Positions 2,561 to 61,052 of a DNA stretch of 64,000 nt are shown here, piece after piece. The first letter of the stretch is position 1. The number at the start of each line of letters is the position of its first letter. A program made the position numbers and the translations under genes. The DNA comes from Squalus acanthias (Eukaryota). The notes below the pieces were generated by a model, which did not search any database, was not told where the DNA came from, and saw only the letters and a program-made list of their open reading frames with translations. The stretch spans positions 58,716,001 to 58,780,000 of the forward strand of contig CM059432.1 of NCBI GenBank assembly GCA_030390025.1, written 5' to 3'.

Positions 2561-3756
2561 TTTCTTTTAAAAAAAGTGTGTGACGAAAAGGTGCCTAACT
2601 TTGGCCCTATGTCATGCCAGTTTAGTGAATGAATAACTTGGTCAGATGTTAAAATCTACATTTTCAGTGTAGTGCTGGAAAAAGGTCAAAGGGAGCGATC
2701 ACTATTAAAATTTTTACTTGTTTCTGTTCCCTTCCTCCCTGGCTCTCTCGCGTTATTTCCTGACGTTCTCTTCTGCTTTATTTTTGCATTTGGCTCAGTT
2801 TTTCTCTAACTGTGTAACAGTCCTTGTGCTGTTTCCGCCATCTGTTCAACTTGAACCTGTTGAGATAAATTCCCTCTACTTATCCGTTTTCCACTAACAC
2901 TTCCACTTCTTTTCTGGTTCAGCCCACTGTCTTGTAGACTGCTCCACATTGGTAATGCCTACGATGCTGGCAGCAGCTGTAACAAGGATCAGAAAATTAT
3001 TGACTGCCTGTGAAAATCTCTACAGAAGAACAAAGAGAATTCATCTTCTAGTAAATGCCTATAGTGTAGCAGAGCAGTAATACATTAACCACCTTGGACT
3101 TGAACAACAATTTGTGCCAAAGTACCAAGTCTTTTTTTTCTAGTTCCCTATTAAATAATTTTGTCCCATTTGCTGGCAGTTGCTAAGTGCCAAAGAAGTT
3201 CCCTGAAGAAATATATAATGGAAAGGCTCTGCTTTATGAACCTGGAAGGTTGGAATTTTCATTGTATGTTTTAAATGTAAGCTATCATTTTCCTACCTGG
3301 AAATCATTAATTTGCCATGTACATTTGCAAGCATGGATAGACATGGCATGCCTTCACTGGAAATGTAAATGCACAACTAGTTTCTCCTCCTCTATTTGTG
3401 TTTGTCATTTGTATTGCAACTTTATGTAGTGCTGTTATGTAGAATAGTTTTTTTGTGAGCAGTTTGAACACATTTTTGTCGGGAGGGGAAAAGAGTGCTG
3501 TCCAGTCTTGCCTGAAATATATTCTGGGACTGAATGACTAAAATGCTGATTACTTTGAATTTTTATTTATTGTCAGTACTGACTATGATCTATTAAAGTT
3601 CTGTCAATAAATAAAAATAATTTTGAATATGAATTATAAAATGGCAAAATATGCTAAATCTTGGGCACACAATTATATTCTGACATCCACACTGAAGCTT
3701 CTCATCAATAACTGCTATTAAAATCAGTTCACTGTATTGTTCGCAGTTTATTAGAT

Positions 3757-5305: not shown

Positions 5306-6344
5306 AAATGCAATCTGGTGTTGGAAGTAATTTACCACTTGCCTGTTTTTCTACATTTGGGTAGCTGTAAAGAAATGACCAATAAATTGTAAAAATAAGC
5401 TGAATTTTGCCTTTCCTTTTCATTTGTTTAACTGAGATCATAAAGCTAGTGCATGAGACTTTGGACTGAAATAGCTGTGCAAAATGTTTATTATACAAAT
5501 TCTGGAACAATGATATAGCAACTGAAGTAACATTACAGCCCAACTGCTCTTAAATCTTCTCAGAAATGAGATTATTGCAAGATTGTGGCCTCTCCGGGAC
5601 CAGCAAATCTAATAGGCAAGACTCTAAAACAAGCTGTATGGTCTGAATCAAATAGCCATCAATTCAGAGCAAAGTGAAACTTGCCAAACCAAATGCCTAT
5701 GTCTGAGCATGTCCCTCTGTTTTTGAGAAGGTAACCCTACATTTGAGAGGGAACAAAAGACTGAATAATGTCTGCTGAAAAAACAACTATGGGTCACATG
5801 GAATCTTGAGCAAAGAAAGAAAACTTTTTGAAAGAACAGGAAACTAAAGAAATTAAGCCGACAAGACAGAAAACAGCCCCATAAGCTTTATAACCAGCAC
5901 CACAACATGAGTAGAAAGAATAGCACCAAATGCCAAACACAGCAGATGTCTCCGAACTCATTCACCGCCCAACACCCGCACCCAGCTCGCTCACCCTGCC
6001 CCCCTGACACTGAGCAGTAATTCCCAGATCACAATGCAAGTACACCCCCACTAATCATAAATACCTAGACTGGATTAGAAACACATTTTCTCCTTTTCCC
6101 CCACACTGCTGAGCAAAAAGTCAGGAATAGAACCAGAAACCCACACAAATCCTCCCCTACACTGAGCATAAATACTGGGATCAGACCTCAACTCCCCATT
6201 TAATTTCCCCACCCTACTTAAGTGAGCGTGTGATTGTGCCACCCTCCTTGCATTGTCTCCATCCCCCACCCAATGAGTGTAGATATGTGGAAGGAACACC
6301 CCAACCCACACTTGGCATCCCTCTGCACTATGGAGGAAAACTTA

Positions 6345-6514
6345 GTGAGGTGTGTGGAGGAGCCTGTGTAGGAGCAGTGAATGACTGAACGCAACTTCAG
6401 GATTTCCAGGTTGGGCTGCGCATGCACTAAATCCAGAAGTTGCGGTCAGTTTCAAAGGTGAAATGACGGCGAATGCTGCCAGTTTGCCATCAGCAGGACC
6501 ACAAATTCCGGGCC
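6345..6514 (-). mobile_element. Terminal fragment of a Harbinger-type non-autonomous DNA transposon
   Basis: Reverse-complement match to 59548-59700; ends in aaattccgggcc, the same terminus as at 60178-60189. Confidence 0.65.
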
Positions 6515-15766: not shown

Positions 15767-15803
15767 AGTTGACGTTTCAGGTCGATGACCTTTCATCAGA
15801 ACT
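15767..15803 (-). ncRNA. Minimal type I hammerhead ribozyme motif (family A), GUC cleavage triplet
   Basis: Minus strand AGTT-CTGATGA-A-AGGTC-ATC-GACCT-GAAA-CG-TC-AACT: core, 5-bp stem II, 4-bp stem I, palindromic ACGT stem III. Confidence 0.75.
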
Positions 15804-16710
15804 GGGAAGAGCTGGAAATCAAATAGATTTAAGGCCAGGGTAAAGCTGGGAAAAGGGGGAGGGGATAAAGGAACAAAGGAGGAGATGAAGAGACATTGAG
15901 AGACATTAAGAGATATGCAAGGCTAGAGGTGGTGTTAATGTGACAGATTAAGGCTGAATGAAGTGTGAAATCTACTGGCAGAATGAAGGACAGCTGCCAG
16001 CTTCTAGGAGGAAAAAAAAAGGTGGGGGGGACAAATAAAAGGGTAGATAAAATAAAATATAAATGTGATTGGAGCTGAGGTTATGATCTAAAATTGTTGA
16101 ACTCGATATTGAGTCCAGAGGGCTGTAGCGTGCCTAAACGAAAGATGAGGTGCTGTTCCTCGAGCTTACGCTGAGCTTCCGTGGAACAGTGTATTAGGCC
16201 GAGGACGGTGAGGTCAGAGTGGGAGTGAAGCGGTGAATTAAAGTGACAGGCCACCGGGAGCTCGGGGTCCCCCTTACGGACTGAACGGAGGTGTTCCGCA
16301 AAGCGGTCACCCAATCTGCGTTTGGTCTCCCCAATGTAGAGGAGTCCACATCGTGAGCAGCGAATACAGTATACTAAATTGCAGGAAGTACAAGTAAATC
16401 GCTGTTTCACCTGGAAGGGGTGTTTGGGGCCCTGGACAGTGGGAAGAGGGGAGGTATAAGGGCATGTGTTGCATCTCCTGCGCGTGCACGGGAAGGTGCC
16501 GGGCGAAGGGGAAGGGGTGCGGGGGGTGGTAGAGGAGTGGACTAGGGTGTGCGGAGGGAGCGGTCCCTGCGGAATGCTGAAAGGGGAGTGAGGGGAAGAT
16601 GTGTTTGGTGGTGGGATCAGCTGGAGGTGGCGAAATGGCGGAGGATGATCCGTTGAATGTGGAGCTGGTGGGGTGAAAGGTGAGACAAGGGGAACCCTAT
16701 CGTGGTTCCG

Positions 16711-25805: not shown

Positions 25806-26991
25806 CTGATACAGCAATGTGTGCAAGGGTTGGTAAGGAGGAGATTAGTTTTGAAAACTGATTTTTAAGTGAATGGACTCAAATGGCAAATGTCATTGAA
25901 TGTGGCGAAGTGCTGTGTTATGCACATTGGACCATGGGACCAGTGTAACTTGGTGTATGCCTATTCCACACAAGGATGCTCATTAAAAGTAACACAGCAG
26001 GAAACTATGCACATGAAAAAACCATAGCAGCAAAGGGTCTTTGGGGACAGTCATTAACGACACATTTAAAAAATCACGAGAAATGTGAGGCAGCTATAAG
26101 GAAAGAATTTCTTAAAGATTAATATATCATCTGCACTTGTAATGTTGTGGCCAGTTTGCTCTCCCCCTCCTCCCCCCCCCCCCCCCCCCCATATCCCCCA
26201 TTGTTGTAATTCCAATTCTTTTGATGGATTATTGCCTTGGCATGAATCATAGGATCATCTCTGAAGCTTGGTAAATTTGTCCTGGTCACTTTTTTGGTGT
26301 TGCTATAACATGATTGGCAACAGTCTGGCATTGAGCAATAAATGATCTTCCAAAACTCTCTTCATTCAGGAATTGTCCCCTTGGATTGGAAAATTGCCCA
26401 TGTCACTCCATTATTTAAGAAGGGTAGGAGAGGTAAACTAGGAAATTATAGGCCTAATAGTATTCTATTGTGGGGAAGTTATTGGAGACAAAGGTCACGA
26501 AATTCAACCCCGTAGCACCTGTAGTTTTGGCAGTTTTAAAATTTAAAAATGGCGTCCGCCTCACTTCTGGCATAGCCCTCTCTGTTCGCCATCTTGGTGA
26601 GGGCGATAGCACGGGGCTGTGCATGCGCTGGCAGTATGCAGAGTAGGCAGATCGTGACGTCAGTCAGCGTGTAACGCTGATTTGATGCACGACCTACAAT
26701 TTTCGACATTGCCGCTCCATTCAACGCCCACTCCTAAACACGCACAGCTGAAAGTGCATTCAGATGCATGAGCGACCCCCCCCCCCCCCCCACCAGCGCT
26801 AGTTAAAGGGATACATCTAACTTGCAGGTAAGTTGCTTATTGCTTTTGTACTGGATCTTGCAGAGTTTGTTGGAGTACTGGGTTGCTGTAAGAGATTTGA
26901 AAAGTTGTTGGTGTGCAGGGAATGCTGCTGCACGTTGGGAAGGCGTTTGCTGCTACTGGAAGGCCTCTGAGAACGCCACTTGCTCCCTGTC

Positions 26992-27966
26992 ATGGGGGCT
27001 CGAGTTGTAGCATGACGGGGAGATGGAGCAGAGGCAGCAAAGACAAGCTGCTCGCAGAGGGAGGAGGAGGGGAACGAGGACTCTCGGCAGAAGACCTTAC
27101 GCACCTAGGGTCTTCAGGGAGCACTTCTCCTACCTGCACGTAAGCCAGGAGCAGTGTGTTCGGTGGTTCCACTTCACGAACTCTGCCACCTCTTGGAACC
27201 AGACGTGCAGTCTCGGAGCAGGGTGACGACTGCTCTGCCAGTGTCCCTCAAGGTGACCATGGCCCTGAATGTTTTCGCCAGCGGATCCTTCCAGACTGGA
27301 ACAGACAACATGGACAGAAAACTGCGAGGTTTTTGCTATCACTGCATCGGGGAGGTCACAGACGCTCTGTATGCTCAGAGAGGGGACTTTTGTCTTCTCT
27401 CTAAACAGAGCGAAGGATGCACGTGGCTTTGCCAGGATAGTGGGCTTCCCCATGGTGCAGGGTGCCATCGACTGCACACAAGTGGCTCTGAGGGTGCCGC
27501 ATCTCAATGGTGAGATGTTCCGTAACCGCAAATTGTTCCATTTCAATTGACGTGCAGTTGGTGTACGACCACGCCCAGCACATCATGCTGGTGAATGCCC
27601 GCTATCCTGGCAGCAGTCATGATGCCTTCATCCTGCGCCAGTCCGCTCTACCAGCAATCTTCCAGCCACCACATCGAAACAGAGGGTGGCTGCTTGGCGA
27701 CGAGGGCTCTACACCTGGCTGATAACTCCCCTCTGCAGCCCCACCACTCGTGGCCAGCACACACAATGAGAGCCACGAGGGACGTCATCGAGCAGATCAT
27801 CGGGGTGCCGAAGCAATGGTACCGCTGCCTTGACTGCTCTGGAGGAGCCCTCCAGTACTTCCAATTCGTGGTGGTCTGCTGCTTCCTCCACAACCTGGCC
27901 ATCATGAGGGCGCAGCCCTTGCTATCACGGCTTCTGCAACCACCTCAGGAGGAAGGGAGGAGGTAG
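26992..27966 (+). pseudogene. Harbinger DDE transposase (HARBI1-like), frameshifted
   Basis: ALNVFASGSFQ, GFPMVQGAIDCT, FRNRK, ARYPGSSHDAFIL, WLLGD, TRDVIEQIIG, CCFLHNL spread across frames. Confidence 0.92.
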
Positions 27967-28199
27967 CCTGCATTTCCACTTTCCAGATGGGCTATGCATA
28001 AGCACATCAGACTCCGGTTCCCCTGAATGAAATTCCAGATCCCCGTTGCTCAGCACTTCCCCACCTTACCATCCCTCTGTCACAGAACATCGCGGCTTCT
28101 TCTTGGTCACAATGCTGAAATGAAAGCCATCACAAAACAAACATTCCAAACCACATTTATAAATCATTCAATTCAATACTACATAACAAAGTCAGTTAA

Positions 28200-29981
28200 T
28201 CACCCTTGTGCATTCCCTTAGTGCCTGTCTTACATGTGCCTTTGCCTGTCCTAGTGCTCCTATGAAGTTCTACTCCAGTGGCTGCAGCATAGCTGGTGAA
28301 AGGCTGCTGACTTTCAGTGTGGGAGACTGCAGATGGCCTTGCAGGATGAGCTCTGGGCCTAGAAGACCCAGCTATAGACTGCACCACTTTGACATAGGTG
28401 GCAGTAGTCTGGGCTGGTTGGCTGACCAGACAACAGCAAGGGCACTGGTAGAGTGGCAGTGGTGGAAGTATGAATGCTGTCATCCTAAAAGGACAGCAGG
28501 TTCATGTTGCACGGCGCCACTGCCACTACCCCGGGGCAACGCCTCAGCAATCCTAGTAATCTGTTGGAGAACAGATTGCTGGACTGCTGTGACACCCTGT
28601 AAGCCCCTTTCCACACTGGTAAACGCAGCCATGATGGCAGCAGTCTGAGCTTGCATGACAAAGTCTGAACTTCCACTGCAGCACTCAGATGTCACTTCTG
28701 CTTGTGCTGCAATGGAAGCTGAGACATCAGCCATCAGACCCTGCATCATGGTTGGGTCCACGTGTGCTAATGGAGTTGGCCATCACTTCCATCCTGGAAA
28801 TCATGGGCTCCAAGGTCCGTGCAAAGCCCTGTGCGAAGTTGGTGCCGGATTCCTCCATGCTCCTTGACGTGACAACAGGCTCTCTGGTAGGCCTGCCAAT
28901 GCAGCAAGCATTTCTGTGTGCATGCCCATCACCCTTCTTCTGTAGGCTGCCCTAGTCCTCATTTGAGTCCTCTGCAGCAGAACTCGTGTGACCTCTCCCT
29001 CCAGGGAGCTGGCACCTGCGCAACCCTTTCACCGTGCCCAGTGACTCACCACATGAAGATCCCGCCTTGATACGACCCTCTAAAGTACGCACAGTGCCAG
29101 TTTCTTAGCTGGTGCCTGAGAGTATGAGATTGAGTGACGGTGGCTCTTCTCTATCACTCTCCTCTTGCTCTTCCTGCACTTGCTGGCCAGGTTGGAGTTC
29201 TTTGGTATCTGAAAAGAAAAAGGCAAAAGGGTAGGGTTGTGGGGAGGGGGGAAAGCAAGATGTGCATGCTTACACCATCAGCAGCTTGTAAGCGCGAACA
29301 GATTGTGGGATGTGAGGAGGAGGATTAGGTATGAACATACCGTCATAATGGTTTCAGCCTGACCAATCGCCTCCGTGTCGGGCCCTCCAATAATGTCAAG
29401 CACGGTCTCCTCCAGCTGGGTCAGGATGTGCAGTCTTGCCCATCCTCTGCCGGTTAGCTGCTGCTGCCTGCGGTTATGAGCCACTTTGCACTGCGAGAGA
29501 GGGAAGTGTGTGAGTGAGTGTGGTGCAATGTGATTGGGCGATGTCGTGGTTGAATAGCGAGATGTGGATGTGAGGCTTGCAGCAGTGGTAAGTGTGTGAG
29601 GGTGAAGTGAAGCTAGGAATGTGAGGTATGGATCATGATTGCTAGAGATTGTTGGTAGGTGAGTGATGAGGTGTGGTGTGTTGAGCAGGGTGAGGCTAGT
29701 AGTGCAGTTGTTGGGAGATGGCTTTTTTAAGATGAATTCACTGACCTTGACCACTTGTGAGGACATTGAACTTCTTTTGGCACTGGATCCAGGTCCTCGG
29801 GGCAAGACTGTTGGCAGTGACTGCTTCGGCTATCTGTTCCCACTGCCTTCTGACTGTGTCTAGAGGGCCTCCTGGCCCCCTGCGGGTACAGGACCTGTCT
29901 CCTCCTTTCTACCCCCTGCACTAAGGCTGCCAGTGCTGCATCGGAGAACCTTGGTGCCCTTTCTCTGCCCTGTTGAGCCAT
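28200..29981 (-). pseudogene. Harbinger Myb/SANT-like (trihelix) DNA-binding protein, spliced and decayed
   Basis: MAQQGRERAPRFSDAALAALVQGVERRRQVLYP then APRTWIQCQKKFN; later segment KVAHNRRQQQLTGRG..LTQLEETVLDIIG; 3' end approximate. Confidence 0.8.
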
Positions 29982-30883
29982 TACTCAGTCACGGTTGCCT
30001 TAATGAGCACCTCAAGCAGCTGCTGAATGCACCTCCCCTTTTAAGAGGTGCAGGCTGCCTTTAAAAGTGGAGGCTAGCCTCACACAAACTTCACAGCCAC
30101 TGAGCAGCGCACTCCGCACTGGGCTGCATGCATCAATCATGGTAATTAGCAGGCAGCACGAAAGTCGCGTGCTGCCTGCATTACTTTCAACGGCCACGGG
30201 CCAATCACTCATCGCTATCCCCTCCCCCGTTTTTGGGCCTAATCGAGTTTTTAACCCAGAGTGACTGAGTACTTGGACAAATATGAACTGCTCAAAGCGC
30301 CAGCATGGTTATGTAAACAGCAAGTCATGTCTAATGAACCAAGTTGAATTTTTTGAGGAGGTAACTAATGTGGTAGATAAGGGTGTATCTATGGATGTTA
30401 TTTATATGGACTTCCAAAAGGCATGTTCCACATAAGAGATTGTTAACAAAATTGGGAGCACATGGAATTAGAGGCAACCTATTGACATGCGTAGGGAATT
30501 GTTTAGGAGGTAGGAGACAGAGTAGGGATAATGGGTATGTACTCAAATTGGCAGGATGTGACTATTGGTGTCTCCCAGGGAGCTGTACTGGGGCCTCATT
30601 TTTCACTATATTGATAAATGACTTGGATAAAGGAATAGCAAGCCATATATCCAAGTTTGCTGATGACACCAAGTTAGGTGGCACAGTAAATAGTGTAGGT
30701 GGGAGCAGAAAGTTGCAAAGGGACATTGATAGATTAAGTGAGTGGGGAAAAACTCTGGCAGATGGAGTTCAATGTGGGGAAGTGTGAGGTCATCCACTTT
30801 GGGCCTAAAAGATAGATCAGAGTATTCTCTAAATGGTGATAAGCTAGGAACTGTGAAGGAGCAGAGAGGGGTCTAAGTACAGA

Positions 30884-31390: not shown

Positions 31391-31427
31391 AGTTCTGATG
31401 AAAGGTCATCGACCTGAAACGTTAACT
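31391..31427 (+). ncRNA. Hammerhead motif (family A) in a Penelope repeat fragment (31390-31492), sense to the host pre-mRNA
   Basis: AGTT-CTGATGA-A-AGGTC-ATC-GACCT-GAAA-CG-TT-AACT. Confidence 0.7.
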
Positions 31428-40298: not shown

Positions 40299-40520
40299 AC
40301 ACTGTCTGGATCAACGTGAGACCGCAGTTGGGGAGGAAGATGGAATAAGCAGCAATGAAGTGATGTTTGTGGCGGGGGCAGACGATTGCTTCAATCTTCT
40401 CAGTGCTGAGGTAGAGTCTCATTCAAGATTGAATGTTGGACTGGCAGTACACAACCAATCTAGGGATCAAAGTGAGAGGTCGCACAACACCAGGTTATAG
40501 TCCAACAGTTTTATTTGAAA

Positions 40521-40558
40521 TCACAAGCTTTCGGAGCTGCTGCCCCTTCGTCAGGTGA
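40521..40558 (-). ncRNA. Hammerhead motif (family B), antisense arm
   Basis: Reverse complement TCAC-CTGACGA-A-GGGGC-AGCA-GCTCC-GAAA-GC-TT-GTGA. Confidence 0.7.
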
Positions 40559-40591
40559 AGTGAAGGAATACGAATCGGCAAAGCCTTCACT

Positions 40592-40629
40592 TCACCTGAC
40601 GAAGGGGCAGCAGCTCCGAAAGCTTGTGA
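40592..40629 (+). ncRNA. Hammerhead motif (family B), sense arm
   Basis: TCAC-CTGACGA-A-GGGGC-AGCA-GCTCC-GAAA-GC-TT-GTGA. Confidence 0.7.
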
Positions 40630-42491
40630 TTTGAAATAAAACTGTTGGACTATAACCTGGTGTTGTGCGACTTCTCACTTTTGTCCACCCCAGTCCAACA
40701 CCGGCATCTCCGAATCTAGGGATCAAGAGAGGTGGTGGAGATAAAGCTGATTTTCATCGGCATACATGTAGAAACCGACCATGTCTGCTGCTGATGCAGT
40801 CAAATGGAGGAGAGTTGTTGGAGGAGGATGATCAGCCATGTCGAATGTTGTGGTGTGGAGAGGTTGGAGGGATAAGGCGCCACTGTTTTTCAGTTCTTTA
40901 ACTATGTAGATTCTCATGATAATTGAAGGGAGGAATAAAACTTTGCAGGACAAAATTAGTAGATTGTTCCGTGTTGTAACTTTGCAGTGCTCACTTGTGG
41001 TTTATTTTATGTTCATAGTTTAATGCAGTGGAATCTCAATTTGGTGGTAAATTAAGAAAATGAATAAAGGTGCCACTGGAGCCAAGAATTGGCACCTGAG
41101 TAGCTGAAGAGCTCGCATGTCTTGGCACTGGCCAATGAAGTGTTTTTTTTTTGGAAACAAGGCATTTCTACAGCATATGAACTAGATTCCAGTGCAGTTA
41201 GGAAGTATTTTTCTCCAGTGGAAATGCAGCATTGGTGTTAATTGTTCAATAGCTGCTTTTATTTCAAAGCCTTTGGTAAATTAGGATTAGGCCCAAAGAA
41301 ATTTTGTGTTTTTAATGGATGAGGGTACTATTTAGTATAATTATTTTTATGCTAGGTAAAGTGATTATTTGAAATCCCAAGCTATATTGTAGGTGGAATC
41401 TGGGAGAAAGTTGCTGTACCCAAGGAGGGGCAATATTGGCAATTAAATCATTTTTTTAATAAATTCATCAAGAACACCACCAATGTGTGACATTGATTTT
41501 TTTTTTGGCTGGTGGGACAGGTCCTCGCAGCACCTGGGCTTAATTACAGCCCTTCTGGAAAACAGATGGATGTTCTACACAAGAAAGGACATTACTAGGC
41601 TTTGTAATGAAGCTATGTATTAAGTGCCTAAGTGTTGCAAACTGGAGCATTCCCTGCTGGGTTTTGATTTTTTTTAAATGTTAATTAGTTCAGTCTATTT
41701 AAACTGGATGAAGGTCACTGGTAAAGAAAATTAACTGCATTTATATGTCCTGTTTTGTTTCTATCAATGCAAGTACAAGGCTGGTACAGTTTATTTTCGT
41801 GCTGCAGCACTAAACCACTTGCAGGTTGTTTCACAGCACTCGTATCATTTTTCATAAGCTGAGGATTTTGTTTTAAGATGGTTTTTGCAACGTGCATGCT
41901 GCTCATCAAAGGAAGGTGTTTGCAATCCCATTTATGGGTTTACCTCGTGTCATATACATTACACTGGGTACTGTCATTGAGCTGACCTTATTGCCTAAGT
42001 AGAATTACCAGATGACCATACTTCCTAAATGCCAGTGAACAAACAGAAATCCTTCTCTAATTGCAGTATGTTATATTCTCCACTGTTGTCAAATGTGAGT
42101 AACAGCCTGCTTCCAAATTTGTGTAAATTTGCATTCAGTCAGCATTTCCATGAACAAAAGTAATCTGGAATACTTTTTTTTTAAAAAAAAGCTCATCTTA
42201 ATTGTTACTGGAAGCAGTTTTATATTGTAACCATAGCAATGCCAAATGCTTCAGTTGTAAAAGTTCTCTCCACCGGTAAAGCAAAATGTTATAAGAGGAG
42301 ACATTTTGCATAGTGCCGTTTACTGTGAGCGACAAATGAGTGCTTTGCCACACACTCAAAGAAGTTCTGATTTAAGGAAATATGCATTTGTTTTTAAATA
42401 GTTGAGCCCAAAGTTAGACATCTATCCATGCTTATTCTGAGATTCATTGTTTTTGGTAACTAAAGTGTGTTCGTCCGACCAAATCTTGTCT

Positions 42492-45533: not shown

Positions 45534-45624
45534 ATGCGAAGGTATATTCAGGTACCAAGAGCGGAACCTGAACAAGTCTACAGGTTTAACACTGGGTGGG
45601 AACCAAGACCCTTGCTGTCCTGTG
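45534..45624 (+). CDS. Candidate alternative first coding exon of EFR3 (unverified)
   Basis: aggATG (A at -3), 30 open codons MRRYIQVPRAEPEQVYRFNTGWEPRPLLSC + G, then GTAAGT; phase 1 matches the exon at 53673. Confidence 0.3.
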
Positions 45625-53652: not shown

Positions 53653-53672
53653 TGATATTTATATTTCTACAG

Positions 53673-53749
53673 GAGTATGCGGCTGCTGTGGTGCTTTGCG
53701 CCCACGATACAAACGCCTGGTAGATAACATCTTTCCTGAAGATCCAAAG
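53673..53749 (+). CDS. EFR3A: EFR3 homolog, coding exon (equivalent to exon 2), 77 nt
   Basis: ttctacag|GA GTA TGC..CCA AAG|gtaagt; (G)VCGCCGALRPRYKRLVDNIFPEDPK, the EFR3 palmitoylation/basic motif. Confidence 0.95.
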
Positions 53750-55488
53750 GTAAGTGAATAATAATAAGTGAATAAAGGTAAGTAACAGAAATTTCAGTTG
53801 CTAAACTTGTTTTTTTTTAAAATGGAAATGTTTAACTCTCTTGTTTCAGTTGGGCTTCATGGAGCTGCATCTTCTACAATACTCAAAACATTATAAATAC
53901 AGTTAAATATATTAACTGAATTTGTTCTAGTTTTGCTCAACCAGGAGTAATTTGGTAGAATAGTGAGCATACATTTTTTTTTTAAAGTGATTATCACTAG
54001 GGTCATTAAGTGTAGCAGGCTTGATGTACTATTAGTCAACATGGCCCAATATACTTTAACTGCAGTATGGTAGACTATTATCTATCAACTGCTGCTATTA
54101 GTACAGGTTGGCAGATTGAAACCACTCAGGTTTTGTAAAATGGCTTCATACTCTGAGCTTTATGGGTTAGCCTTGACTCCATTTGTAGGAAAGTGATTCT
54201 CTACCTGTAGAGTTAGTGAGAGATTATGATGGAGGGAAAATAAATCAAATCAAATCTGTGAATACACACCAGATAGCAATGACCATCATTTACACTTTAC
54301 CAAAATGTTTGAAGTAGTTCATTGACTTGTTGATGTTGCTCCTGCTGCTATGTTCCAGCGTGATTGGTATTGATTCTAGTGAGATATTTCAACAACAAAA
54401 GAAAACAAAACTGTCCATCACACTACTGCTTCTGGGTGACTGGATCTGTAGATCTGAATTCCAGTGGTTGAAAGCTGCCACCCTGAAGTGATCTATTTAC
54501 CACCAGATGGTTTTCTTGTATTGTTGAATATTAACTCATTAACTCATTCACTGCTAGAGATGAAATTTGTCACCAACCCTATCTGGTCCAGGGATTACAG
54601 AATGACCTTGGGTACATCCTTCAGTAGTAAAGCAGTAGCTTAAAAAATCAAAACACAGGTCAAAGTGAAGAACAATAGATAGTTTGGACTGAGTAACTCA
54701 ATTGATTTTGGCTGTCATGTTTCAGGATATTGAGAGATTGTGCTACAGCCTTCTTACTCAGATGTACTTTTTTTTTAGACTTCAAGTTCACTGGGATTCA
54801 TGGATTATAGTGCCTGACTTAATTGTGCAAATGTTGAAATTTATGTACAAATCTGACATCTGCATTATCTGTTTCAAAAGCTGCCTTGTTTATATTAAGT
54901 GCAGTTTTCTGAGCTAGCTGTGTGTAGGGTTGTTGGAGGAAGGGAAATACTATAACACATACTTCCCTTTTCACTGTCGGGACATCATCGCCTCTTACAG
55001 ATTGCTGGAATTTGATGTCTTCCATTATCAGTAAAGCTTAAATGCCATTGACCTATCCATGCTCTCATGTCTCACCAAGAGCAGCTTTACATACTGATAG
55101 AAAGGTGTTTGAGCTGGAAAATCTTAGTACTGGCACAGCCGAAAGCAGGTTGAATGTATGAATGTCTCCTCTCTGGTAGATAAGTCCTCACTTATTTTAA
55201 ATATCTGGATTTTGTTTGGGAGAGTTGTTTGCTTAAATTAATATTTAGTGTTATCCTCCACACTTCTGTTTTTAAACTTGCATTTCTGCCTGAAAATATA
55301 GTTACCACTATGGAGATAAAATAGTATTACCCTGAGTGGTATTCCGTCTGGAGGTAATTTTGGGAGATTTACTCAAATGCAGAAAATGGCAATCTATGCG
55401 TTGAGCTGTATTTGGGCAGTACCTATGCCCGTTTACAAATTTCAATATAGGTTTAACACTGGTAATTCTTTTGGGCCAGTAATTCTTA

Positions 55489-58774: not shown

Positions 58775-58902
58775 GATGGTCTTGTGAAAGCTGACATGGA
58801 GAAGTTGACCTTCTATGCAGTTTCGGCTCCAGACAAACTGGATCGAATAGGGAAGTACCTTGCAGAACGGCTCAGTCGGGATGTTGTCAGGCATAGATGT
58901 GG
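58775..58902 (+). CDS. EFR3A: EFR3 homolog, coding exon (equivalent to exon 3), 128 nt
   Basis: ttattag|GAT GGT..TGT GG|gtaggt; DGLVKADMEKLTFYAVSAPDKLDRIGKYLAERLSRDVVRHRC(G); in frame with both neighbours. Confidence 0.96.
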
Positions 58903-59360
58903 GTAGGTAACTTTTATTGTTTAAAAATTGTGTGGTAATTTATTTCAATATACTGCTAGCTTAAAAAGTGACTCAAATAATAAATGATACCAGGAGAGAA
59001 ATAAATTGGTGTGGGCAATCACAAAAAGTATAACTGTTTGGAATCTGATTTTCAGTACTGAACTGAGTAAAACATACATTTCCCATGAGGTGTGATGCGC
59101 TGCGCCTCTGACTTCAGGAGAGCATGAGAAAATGGTGGAGAGGGGATTAATTTTCAGAGCCTGACTCTTGAACAAATCCTGTTGAGATCTTCCAATTCCC
59201 TGATTGCACCATTCCTCATTTTATTGTCCCCATTCCTTTTAACTTGTTCCGTGATGAGACTATACGATAAGTAGGGGCGATGCCGTGGCTTGTGGGTATA
59301 AGCATTCTTTTTGTTTCTAGAAAACAGATTACTTCCCAGCACTAGTTTTAAAAATTGTGA

Positions 59361-59451
59361 GGTCGCACAACACCAGGTTATAGTCCAACAGTTTTATTTG
59401 AAATCACCAAGCTTTCGGAGCTATCGATCGCCCCTTCCTCAGGTGAAGTAG
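59361..59451 (-). mobile_element. Single-arm copy of the family-B Penelope repeat with hammerhead motif (59404-59446)
   Basis: Matches 40479-40561; core CTGAGGA..GAAAGCTT on minus strand; flanked by attgtga (59354-59360 / 59452-59458). Confidence 0.8.
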
Positions 59452-60685: not shown

Positions 60686-61052
60686 ATACAAAAACAAAAT
60701 ACTGCAGATGCTGGAAATCTGAAATAAAAACAGAAAATGCTGGACATACTCAGCAGGTCCGGCAATATCTGTGGCGAGAGAAATAGAGTTCATGTTTCAG
60801 GTCCATGACCTTTCCTCAGAACTGGAAAAAGTTGGAGATGTAACAGTTTTTAAGCAAGTACAGAGGCAGGGAAAGAGGTGGGGGGGGGGGGGGGGGGCGG
60901 TGGTGGAGGTGCAGATGGGAGGAAAGAACAAAAGAGAAGGTCTGTGATAGGGTGGGAATCAGGAGAGATTAAATAACAAAAGGGATGCCAGTGCAAGACA
61001 AAAGTGGGTGGTAATGGGACAAGTAAAGAAACAAAAGATGGGTCTGGAGGAT
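60686..61052 (-). mobile_element. Penelope-type terminal repeat (family A) with decayed hammerhead at 60787-60823
   Basis: Similar to 15706-15900; minus AGTT-CTGAGGA-A-AGGTC-ATG-GACCT-GAAA-CA-TG-AACT. Confidence 0.8.

Follow-up and report, generated by a model that had tools for sequence, protein, structure and literature searches.

The closest described systems are insertions of EN+ Penelope-like elements (PLEs), whose units carry a tail of 30–40 nt according to the accessible portions of PMC3846280, PMC8557442 and PMC2377424. The insertion analysed here, found in a 64-kb window (i.e. the whole stretch of DNA that was analysed), shares with these units an inverted 5'-truncated pLTR in a head-to-head arrangement, a one-ended tail, a short target-site duplication, a parent with RT and GIY-YIG domains, and TATA-like and initiator-like motifs in the pLTR. 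Unlike the published units, it retains pLTR sequence only (242 bp). The minimal hammerheads of metazoan PLEs (PMC4209133) have no true helix III, a palindromic 15.2-16.2 region, a short helix I and an extra nucleotide between 9 and 10.1, all of which recur at this locus. Helix II is 5 bp long in the window as compared to 7–8 bp in Schistosoma motifs, and the two hammerhead cores of the insertion are ~40 nt apart. Pairs on opposite strands, as in the insertion, are also reported for PLEs, at distances of about 100–700 bp (PMC4209133). The Poseidon element PAc of the green anole, as characterized in vitro (PMC11167929), resembles the window's family in having two end points approximately one tail length apart, in using either target strand and in that the position of the hammerhead cut does not determine where copies end. 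In the window's family, both end points and the hammerhead lie upstream of the start codon, whereas the PAc start sites are inside the ORF (PMC11167929), and the window's parent differs from PAc in having a Neptune-type cysteine linker. Animal non-LTR retrozymes, in the accessible part of their description (bioRxiv 10.64898/2026.07.22.740005), are likewise small, non-coding, hammerhead-bearing and pLTR-derived, but consist of units repeated in tandem, head to tail, each of which has a hammerhead, whereas the window has an inverted pair with a unique junction. Identity with a non-LTR retrozyme was rejected, as the inverted pair was found without a tandem unit. In L1 twin-priming inversions, both target strands prime and the arms are non-overlapping parts of one RNA, without a palindrome. 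The window insertion is similar to these inversions in that an inverted piece lies inside the target-site duplication and the junction has a short overlap, but differs in that both arms start near the same element end.

The insertion is flanked by 14-nt target-site duplications at 40457–40470 and 40713–40726 (+ strand), of which the right is an exact repeat of the left and the last 2 nt of the left also match the element end. An inverted tail-less pLTR copy (40469–40584, minus strand), with its 5' end 29–30 nt upstream of hammerhead C3, overlaps by 1 nt at 40584 with a sense pLTR copy (40584–40712, + strand), whose 5' end is 12 nt upstream of C3 and which alone carries the PLE 'tail' (40682–40712, + strand, 31 nt). 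Sequence comparison within the window gave arms of 98 nt each (40469–40566 and 40584–40681) with 17 nt between them and mismatches only at 40478/40672 and 40517/40633. The ~240-bp insertion with an exact 14-bp duplication and ~98-bp inverted arms with about two mismatches, as described in a sequence-only reading, was thereby borne out. The 17-nt 'spacer' of that reading (40567–40583) was correct in length but not in nature: on the minus strand it is the stretch of the element that immediately precedes the arm and separates the TATA-like box from the initiator-like motif, and hence part of the inverted copy. It matched 43 stretches with ≤2 mismatches (28 of them exact) among 274 family loci, some of which overlap, and positions 1–114 of the insertion query aligned without interruption to other copies, on the opposite strand. 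The supposedly unique tail was also not unique, as the tail 24-mer has 34,667 exact copies genome-wide (control, 0). The site was empty in a related organism, one of whose contigs (run X16, record 17) has 40456 directly abutting 40713, the 14-mer present once and flanks differing from the window at 25 of 396 letters, indicating that the 14-nt repeat is a true target-site duplication and that the insertion is younger than the split from this relative. The right junction was found in a second individual of the window's species (X5 record 31), and contigs of run X10 contained flanks only, compatible with a filled or an empty site. No RNA run was listed for the hairpin itself, a sequence swamped by family copies.

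A Penelope-like origin, as proposed from the letters of the window, was upheld by longer copies that carry the same end and run in one piece into RT and GIY-YIG coding sequence, with Pfam matches that were weak and under the cut-off (e.g. PF01541, GIY-YIG, just under it in L045 with E 1.5e-4). A full-length copy of a sister subfamily, L076, exhibited a pLTR-ORF-pLTR structure with an inverted tail-less copy upstream. Its pLTRs (3078–3218 and 6214–6354) are identical over 141 nt, and the sense arm of the window is 91.6% identical to both and up to 99% identical to other copies. The L076 ORF (848 aa) starts just after the tail and has a frameshift near its end; in full-length copies the start codon lies a few bases past the tail. 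This ORF gave an RVT_1 match above the cut-off (E 2.2e-9) and contains DKG, YIDD, CX4CX2C and GIY-YIG-type motifs. The CX4CX2C linker, at residue 753, points to placement of the parent with the Neptune/Nematis type, for which a CX2-5CxxC linker between RT and EN is given as a feature in the accessible part of PMC8557442. A PDB search with the parent ORF yielded 0 matches. The features of EN+ PLEs found were the RT and GIY-YIG ORF, paired pLTRs, an inverted 5'-truncated copy, a 30–40-nt tail and a target-site duplication. Judged by sequence, the window insertion is two 5'-truncated pLTR copies, arranged head to head, of an abundant PLE with RT, GIY-YIG and a Neptune-type linker.

The hammerhead core CUGACGA...GAAA was present on the + strand from 40596 and on the minus strand from 40554, in agreement with the reported motif on both strands. 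The sense motif spans 40592–40629 (+ strand; stem I, 40592–95 with 40626–29) and the inverted motif 40521–40558 (minus strand). Stem I is 4 bp and stem II 5 bp long, an extra A follows A9 and a palindromic AAGCUU replaces helix III, with cleavage of the sense motif predicted after 40625. The core was kept in 81 of 111 anchored arms (as counts without a shuffle control), the others being mostly cut short, and all four bases occurred at position 7 of the core in these arms. Compensatory changes were observed in stem I (CAC/GUG versus UAC/GUA) and in stem II (GGAGC/GCUCC versus GGAGU/ACUCC). The core, the extra nucleotide and the compensated stems I and II assign the motif to the minimal type I hammerheads, as a putative ribozyme. 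An Rfam scan, suggested as a check of the motif, produced no match to a hammerhead model to E 10 and returned only miRNA-precursor matches, below the gathering score and caused by the hairpin. The hairpin itself folds with -200.9 kcal/mol (z -27), a value equalled by 0 of 200 shuffles. Folding prediction gave stem I + II pairing of ~1.0 for the isolated sense arm, 0 for the complete insertion and only ~0.05 for the minus-strand arm with the 17-nt extension. This supports the proposal that the hairpin and ribozyme folds are mutually exclusive; in pre-mRNA the hammerhead would be locked in a hairpin of ~200 kcal/mol and no cleavage would take place. Of the further proposal that the first arm silences the sense ribozyme, the predicted fold exclusion stands, but silencing probably has little to act on, since single minimal PLE hammerheads are reported as inactive, with no cleavage in vitro (PMC4209133). 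The anole PLE hammerhead needed its protein (PMC11167929).

The abundance and forms of the family were examined in the 3.7-Gb genome. Using the insertion as a query, 40 of 518 candidates were scored and gave 84 matches, and the 46-nt hammerhead variant of the window had 1,410 exact copies. A tail-anchored sample drew on 90 of the 100 tail copies listed first for C1, less two segmental duplicates, giving 88 loci that span 8 Mb of one chromosome. An inverted partner adjoined at least 71 of these loci, 14 were scored as having none (of which L137 and L144 do contain inverted parts) and three run off the locus, single values being rough as the L060 subfamily was missed upstream by the references used. 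The inverted partner ended a median of 31 nt inside the end of the tail 24-mer, and arm lengths ranged from <100 nt to ~1.8 kb and beyond. Insertions of the window's inverted type are not rare: mini-palindromes (i.e. both arms ≤140 nt) made up about half of the sampled copies (42/88), a share not reported in the accessible parts of PMC3846280, PMC8557442 and PMC2377424, and extrapolating this fraction to the 34,667 tail copies gives an order of ten thousand minis genome-wide. Among the 20 distinct best palindromic loci (window included), a set biased toward symmetric matches, the centres were all different and 19 had a shared 11–14-nt flank. Several copies depart from the usual forms. A 3.6-kb palindrome (L031:885-4448) contains two coding-region copies with a tail at both ends, breaking the one-tail rule; L033, L037, L038 and L040 (all C10) have the same 1.3-kb palindromic insertion inside a larger segment repeated four times; and L060, L085 and L089 represent a subfamily that differs in the sequence upstream of the hammerhead and may also have an internal deletion. 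Target duplications often overlapped the last bases of the element at both ends (e.g. L007, L010 and L019), which suggests short base-pairing at priming.

Very probably, the window locus is a head-to-head pair of 5'-truncated PLE end-repeats in EFR3 intron 1, likely the product of one insertion event and likely a dead end. In vitro, the protein of the anole PLE nicks both target strands and extends them from two start sites in the RNA, separated by the tail, and hammerhead cleavage is dispensable (PMC11167929). By analogy with this element, the endonuclease would nick both target strands 14 nt apart and RT would extend each of these nicks by starting at one of two sites on the element RNA, of which the outer would yield the tailed arm and the inner the tail-less arm. 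Having stopped shortly past the hammerhead, both cDNAs would be linked through their 3' ends, which at this locus overlap by 1 nt. The hammerhead would be inherited cargo. The narrow band of tail-less ends (i.e. the median of 31 nt) fits such two-start-site priming.

The strongest alternative, although we consider it unlikely, is that one cDNA snaps back at its 3' end, copies itself and stops ~31 nt short of the tail. Arms within one locus are indeed far closer than arms of different loci (1.8% versus 6.3% divergence), four variants among 63 loci were private to both arms of a single locus, many junctions have 0–35-nt loops or palindromic centres, and the accessible part of PMC3846280 reads junction palindromes as self-priming. 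Arm lengths also correlate within pairs (rho 0.62, n=71), the correlation in the 29 non-mini pairs not being significant (rho 0.31, p 0.10). Both double priming and fold-back would produce similar arms of correlated length, such that these data do not separate the two. The narrow band of tail-less ends, however, coincides with the inner start site of RT reported in PMC11167929, the two arms of a pair can differ greatly in length (e.g. 129 versus 1446, 29 versus 480 and 137 versus 2919 nt), and the arms of L122, L189 and L197 bear different hammerhead loop variants, all of which argue against self-copying.

The location of the insertion in the EFR3 pre-mRNA, another element of the sequence-only reading, was confirmed by spliced contigs in which an upstream exon, 15.5 kb before the window on the + strand, is joined to exon 2 (53670–53750, + strand) and then to an exon near 58776 (exon 3, 58776–58897, + strand, boundaries approximate), placing the insertion in intron 1 on the transcribed strand. 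The Pfam EFR3_ARM match at 58775–58897 was just under the cut-off (E 1.2e-5). A PF21072 family search of the genome found no match, with its control equally silent, and a PDB search with the EFR3 exon gave nothing useful. Part of an alternative EFR3 first exon, spliced to exon 2 in one RNA run, was observed at 45594–45617, downstream of the hairpin. Other repeats in the window include a second single arm, which lacks a tail, belongs to a sister subfamily, bears a hammerhead motif and closely follows EFR3 exon 3 (59351–59449, minus strand); a fragment of the end of another GIY-YIG-encoding Penelope-like ORF with a cysteine linker (16171–16663, minus strand); and hammerhead-like core motifs of a second repeated family at 15775–15799, 31395–31419 and 60795–60819. 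A GC-rich region at ~26000–30000 has open frames that resemble those of a Harbinger-type transposon. It is highly improbable that the insertion regulates EFR3 as a functional RNA switch or as a dsRNA element. Such a role would be in keeping with the intronic position on the transcribed strand, with the predicted loss of stem I + II pairing between the sense arm alone and the whole insertion, and with the presence of the right junction in a second individual, but the site is empty in a relative with flanks differing at 25 of 396 letters, the insertion is one among thousands of similar stumps, single minimal hammerheads are inactive in vitro (PMC4209133) and the alternative first exon seen in one RNA run lies downstream of the hairpin.

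The sequence-only reading had left a choice between a one-off inverted insertion and a non-coding hairpin family. The centre junction of the window had one match genome-wide with ≤1 mismatch allowed; the one-off insertion thus holds for this junction, and a mobile family, including a MITE- or SINE-like non-autonomous hairpin family, was rejected in the absence of a second genome copy of the palindromic junction. Two other junctions, both chosen because they recurred in the sample, are shared between insertions. The first contains an untemplated TG and is present exactly four times in the genome (L189, L190, L197 and L199), always on C1 at 12.2–14.6 Mb. No two of these copies share a target site, their arm variants are specific to the locus, and in L199 it is the opposite arm that bears the tail. 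The six related junctions that have another dinucleotide instead are scattered. The second, an asymmetric junction, is shared by L119, L122 and L123 (C1, 3.43–3.98 Mb). L122 and L123 form a segmental duplicate, and the hammerhead loop of L122 differs between its two arms. As only three local copies exist, this junction was rejected as a mobile family. Recurrence at sites with different target duplications means that the rule of every palindrome being built anew has exceptions. Copying of the hairpin whole as a non-autonomous mobile unit is nevertheless scarcely credible: it is favoured by two junctions at several sites with different target duplications (one at three places in a 550-kb interval, of which two form a segmental duplicate, and another at four within 2.4 Mb), but both cases are local and not dispersed, the opposite tail of L199 and the locus-specific arm variants of the four-copy case are left unexplained by it, and the single-copy junction refutes it for the window copy in this assembly. 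Across 90 loci, 17 of 67 identical-junction pairs lay within 3 Mb as compared to 5.9 in shuffles (p 0.0006). Without the discovery cluster, the numbers were 11 of 61 pairs versus 4.9 (p 0.013) at 3 Mb, with no significant excess at 1 Mb (p 0.11) or 5 Mb (p 0.09), making for weak evidence of a general excess of shared junctions among neighbours. Our best guess is that shared junctions result from short ectopic conversion at fragile hairpin tips.

The 5' ends of the copies were also unevenly distributed. Among sense arms, 34 of 85 ends lay 110–130 nt from the tail end, and 27 of 71 inverted-arm ends fell in the 120–130 bin alone, with a sharp fall above 130. The commonest single start, in 13 of 103 cores, was an A located seven bases before the core, and this A sits in an initiator-like motif (initiator consensus, YYANWYY) 30 nt below a TATA-like box. 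A similar TATA-like and initiator-like pair is present in a rotifer PLE according to the accessible part of PMC3846280, and the Drosophila element is described as TATA-less in that of PMC2377424. In the genome as a whole, the start A directly follows a non-element purine in 4,152 copies; such a purine stands one base further up in 882, and 25,245 copies read through. The purine before the A was G in 82 of the first 100 listed versus 56 of 100 at a control position (by eye; Fisher p 1.1e-4). A script applied to 90 loci, which account for 92 of the 100, detected 31 gaps, 27 ending in G and four in A; removal of partner-templated or slipped cases, with one cluster counted once, left ~11 G versus 2–3 A by eye, often as TG or TTG. 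G, TG or TTG in front of the initiator-like A was observed in L172-L201 and L206-L265 and family-wide. Retroviral RTs on capped RNA add C, then A, in the accessible part of PMC6885630, and the G before the start A suggests a possible cap signature, i.e. run-off at the RNA cap. A 1-nt A overlap with a GA-rich partner arm could, however, account for a large part of the G excess (partner ends at the two such A-overlap positions occurred in 20 loci), and a peak would likewise be expected if RT stalled after the hammerhead fold. Hammerhead cleavage was rejected as the source of the 5' ends, cut-site ends being a small minority beside the peak upstream of the core, and an intron ending at the peak position was rejected, as the preceding base is not the end of an AG acceptor.

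We tentatively propose, as a reading that falls somewhat short of probable, that the minis are strong-stop-like cap run-off products whose neighbours swap junctions over 1–3 Mb, the genome thereby recording PLE start, capping and priming. RT would prime twice inside the 5' pLTR of the transcript and would run off its capped 5' end at the initiator 30 nt below the TATA box; the cap would be copied as an extra C, the two short cDNAs would then be joined, and neighbouring hairpins would sometimes swap centre junctions, as if broken tips were repaired from nearby copies. The window copy fits cap run-off only in part, as its arms start 12 and 29–30 nt upstream of the core and not 7, indicating that at least the inverted arm came from an RNA reaching further upstream. 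The architecture, tail and hammerhead are already published for PLEs, whereas cap run-off and shared junctions are family-level leads for which no matching paper was found. A literature search of titles and abstract starts, with most subscription papers beyond it, found no description of either in PLEs, and the accessible part of PMC2386082 contains nothing on cap copying. The novelty of both leads may be affected by Fig. S2 of PMC11167929 and by the consensus files that accompany PMC8557442.

The window copy itself is of little importance: it is the stump of a transposon that inserted recently into an intron, and its type has been published. The genome, by contrast, contains tens of thousands of almost identical ends that make priming sites, stop sites and junctions countable, and the thousands of near-perfect 80–130-bp hairpins would be a likely source of dsRNA and likely fragile sites. 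If cap run-off is true, the internal priming seen in vitro would also occur at the 5' repeat in vivo, and the dominance of tiny hammerhead-bearing palindromes would be explained.
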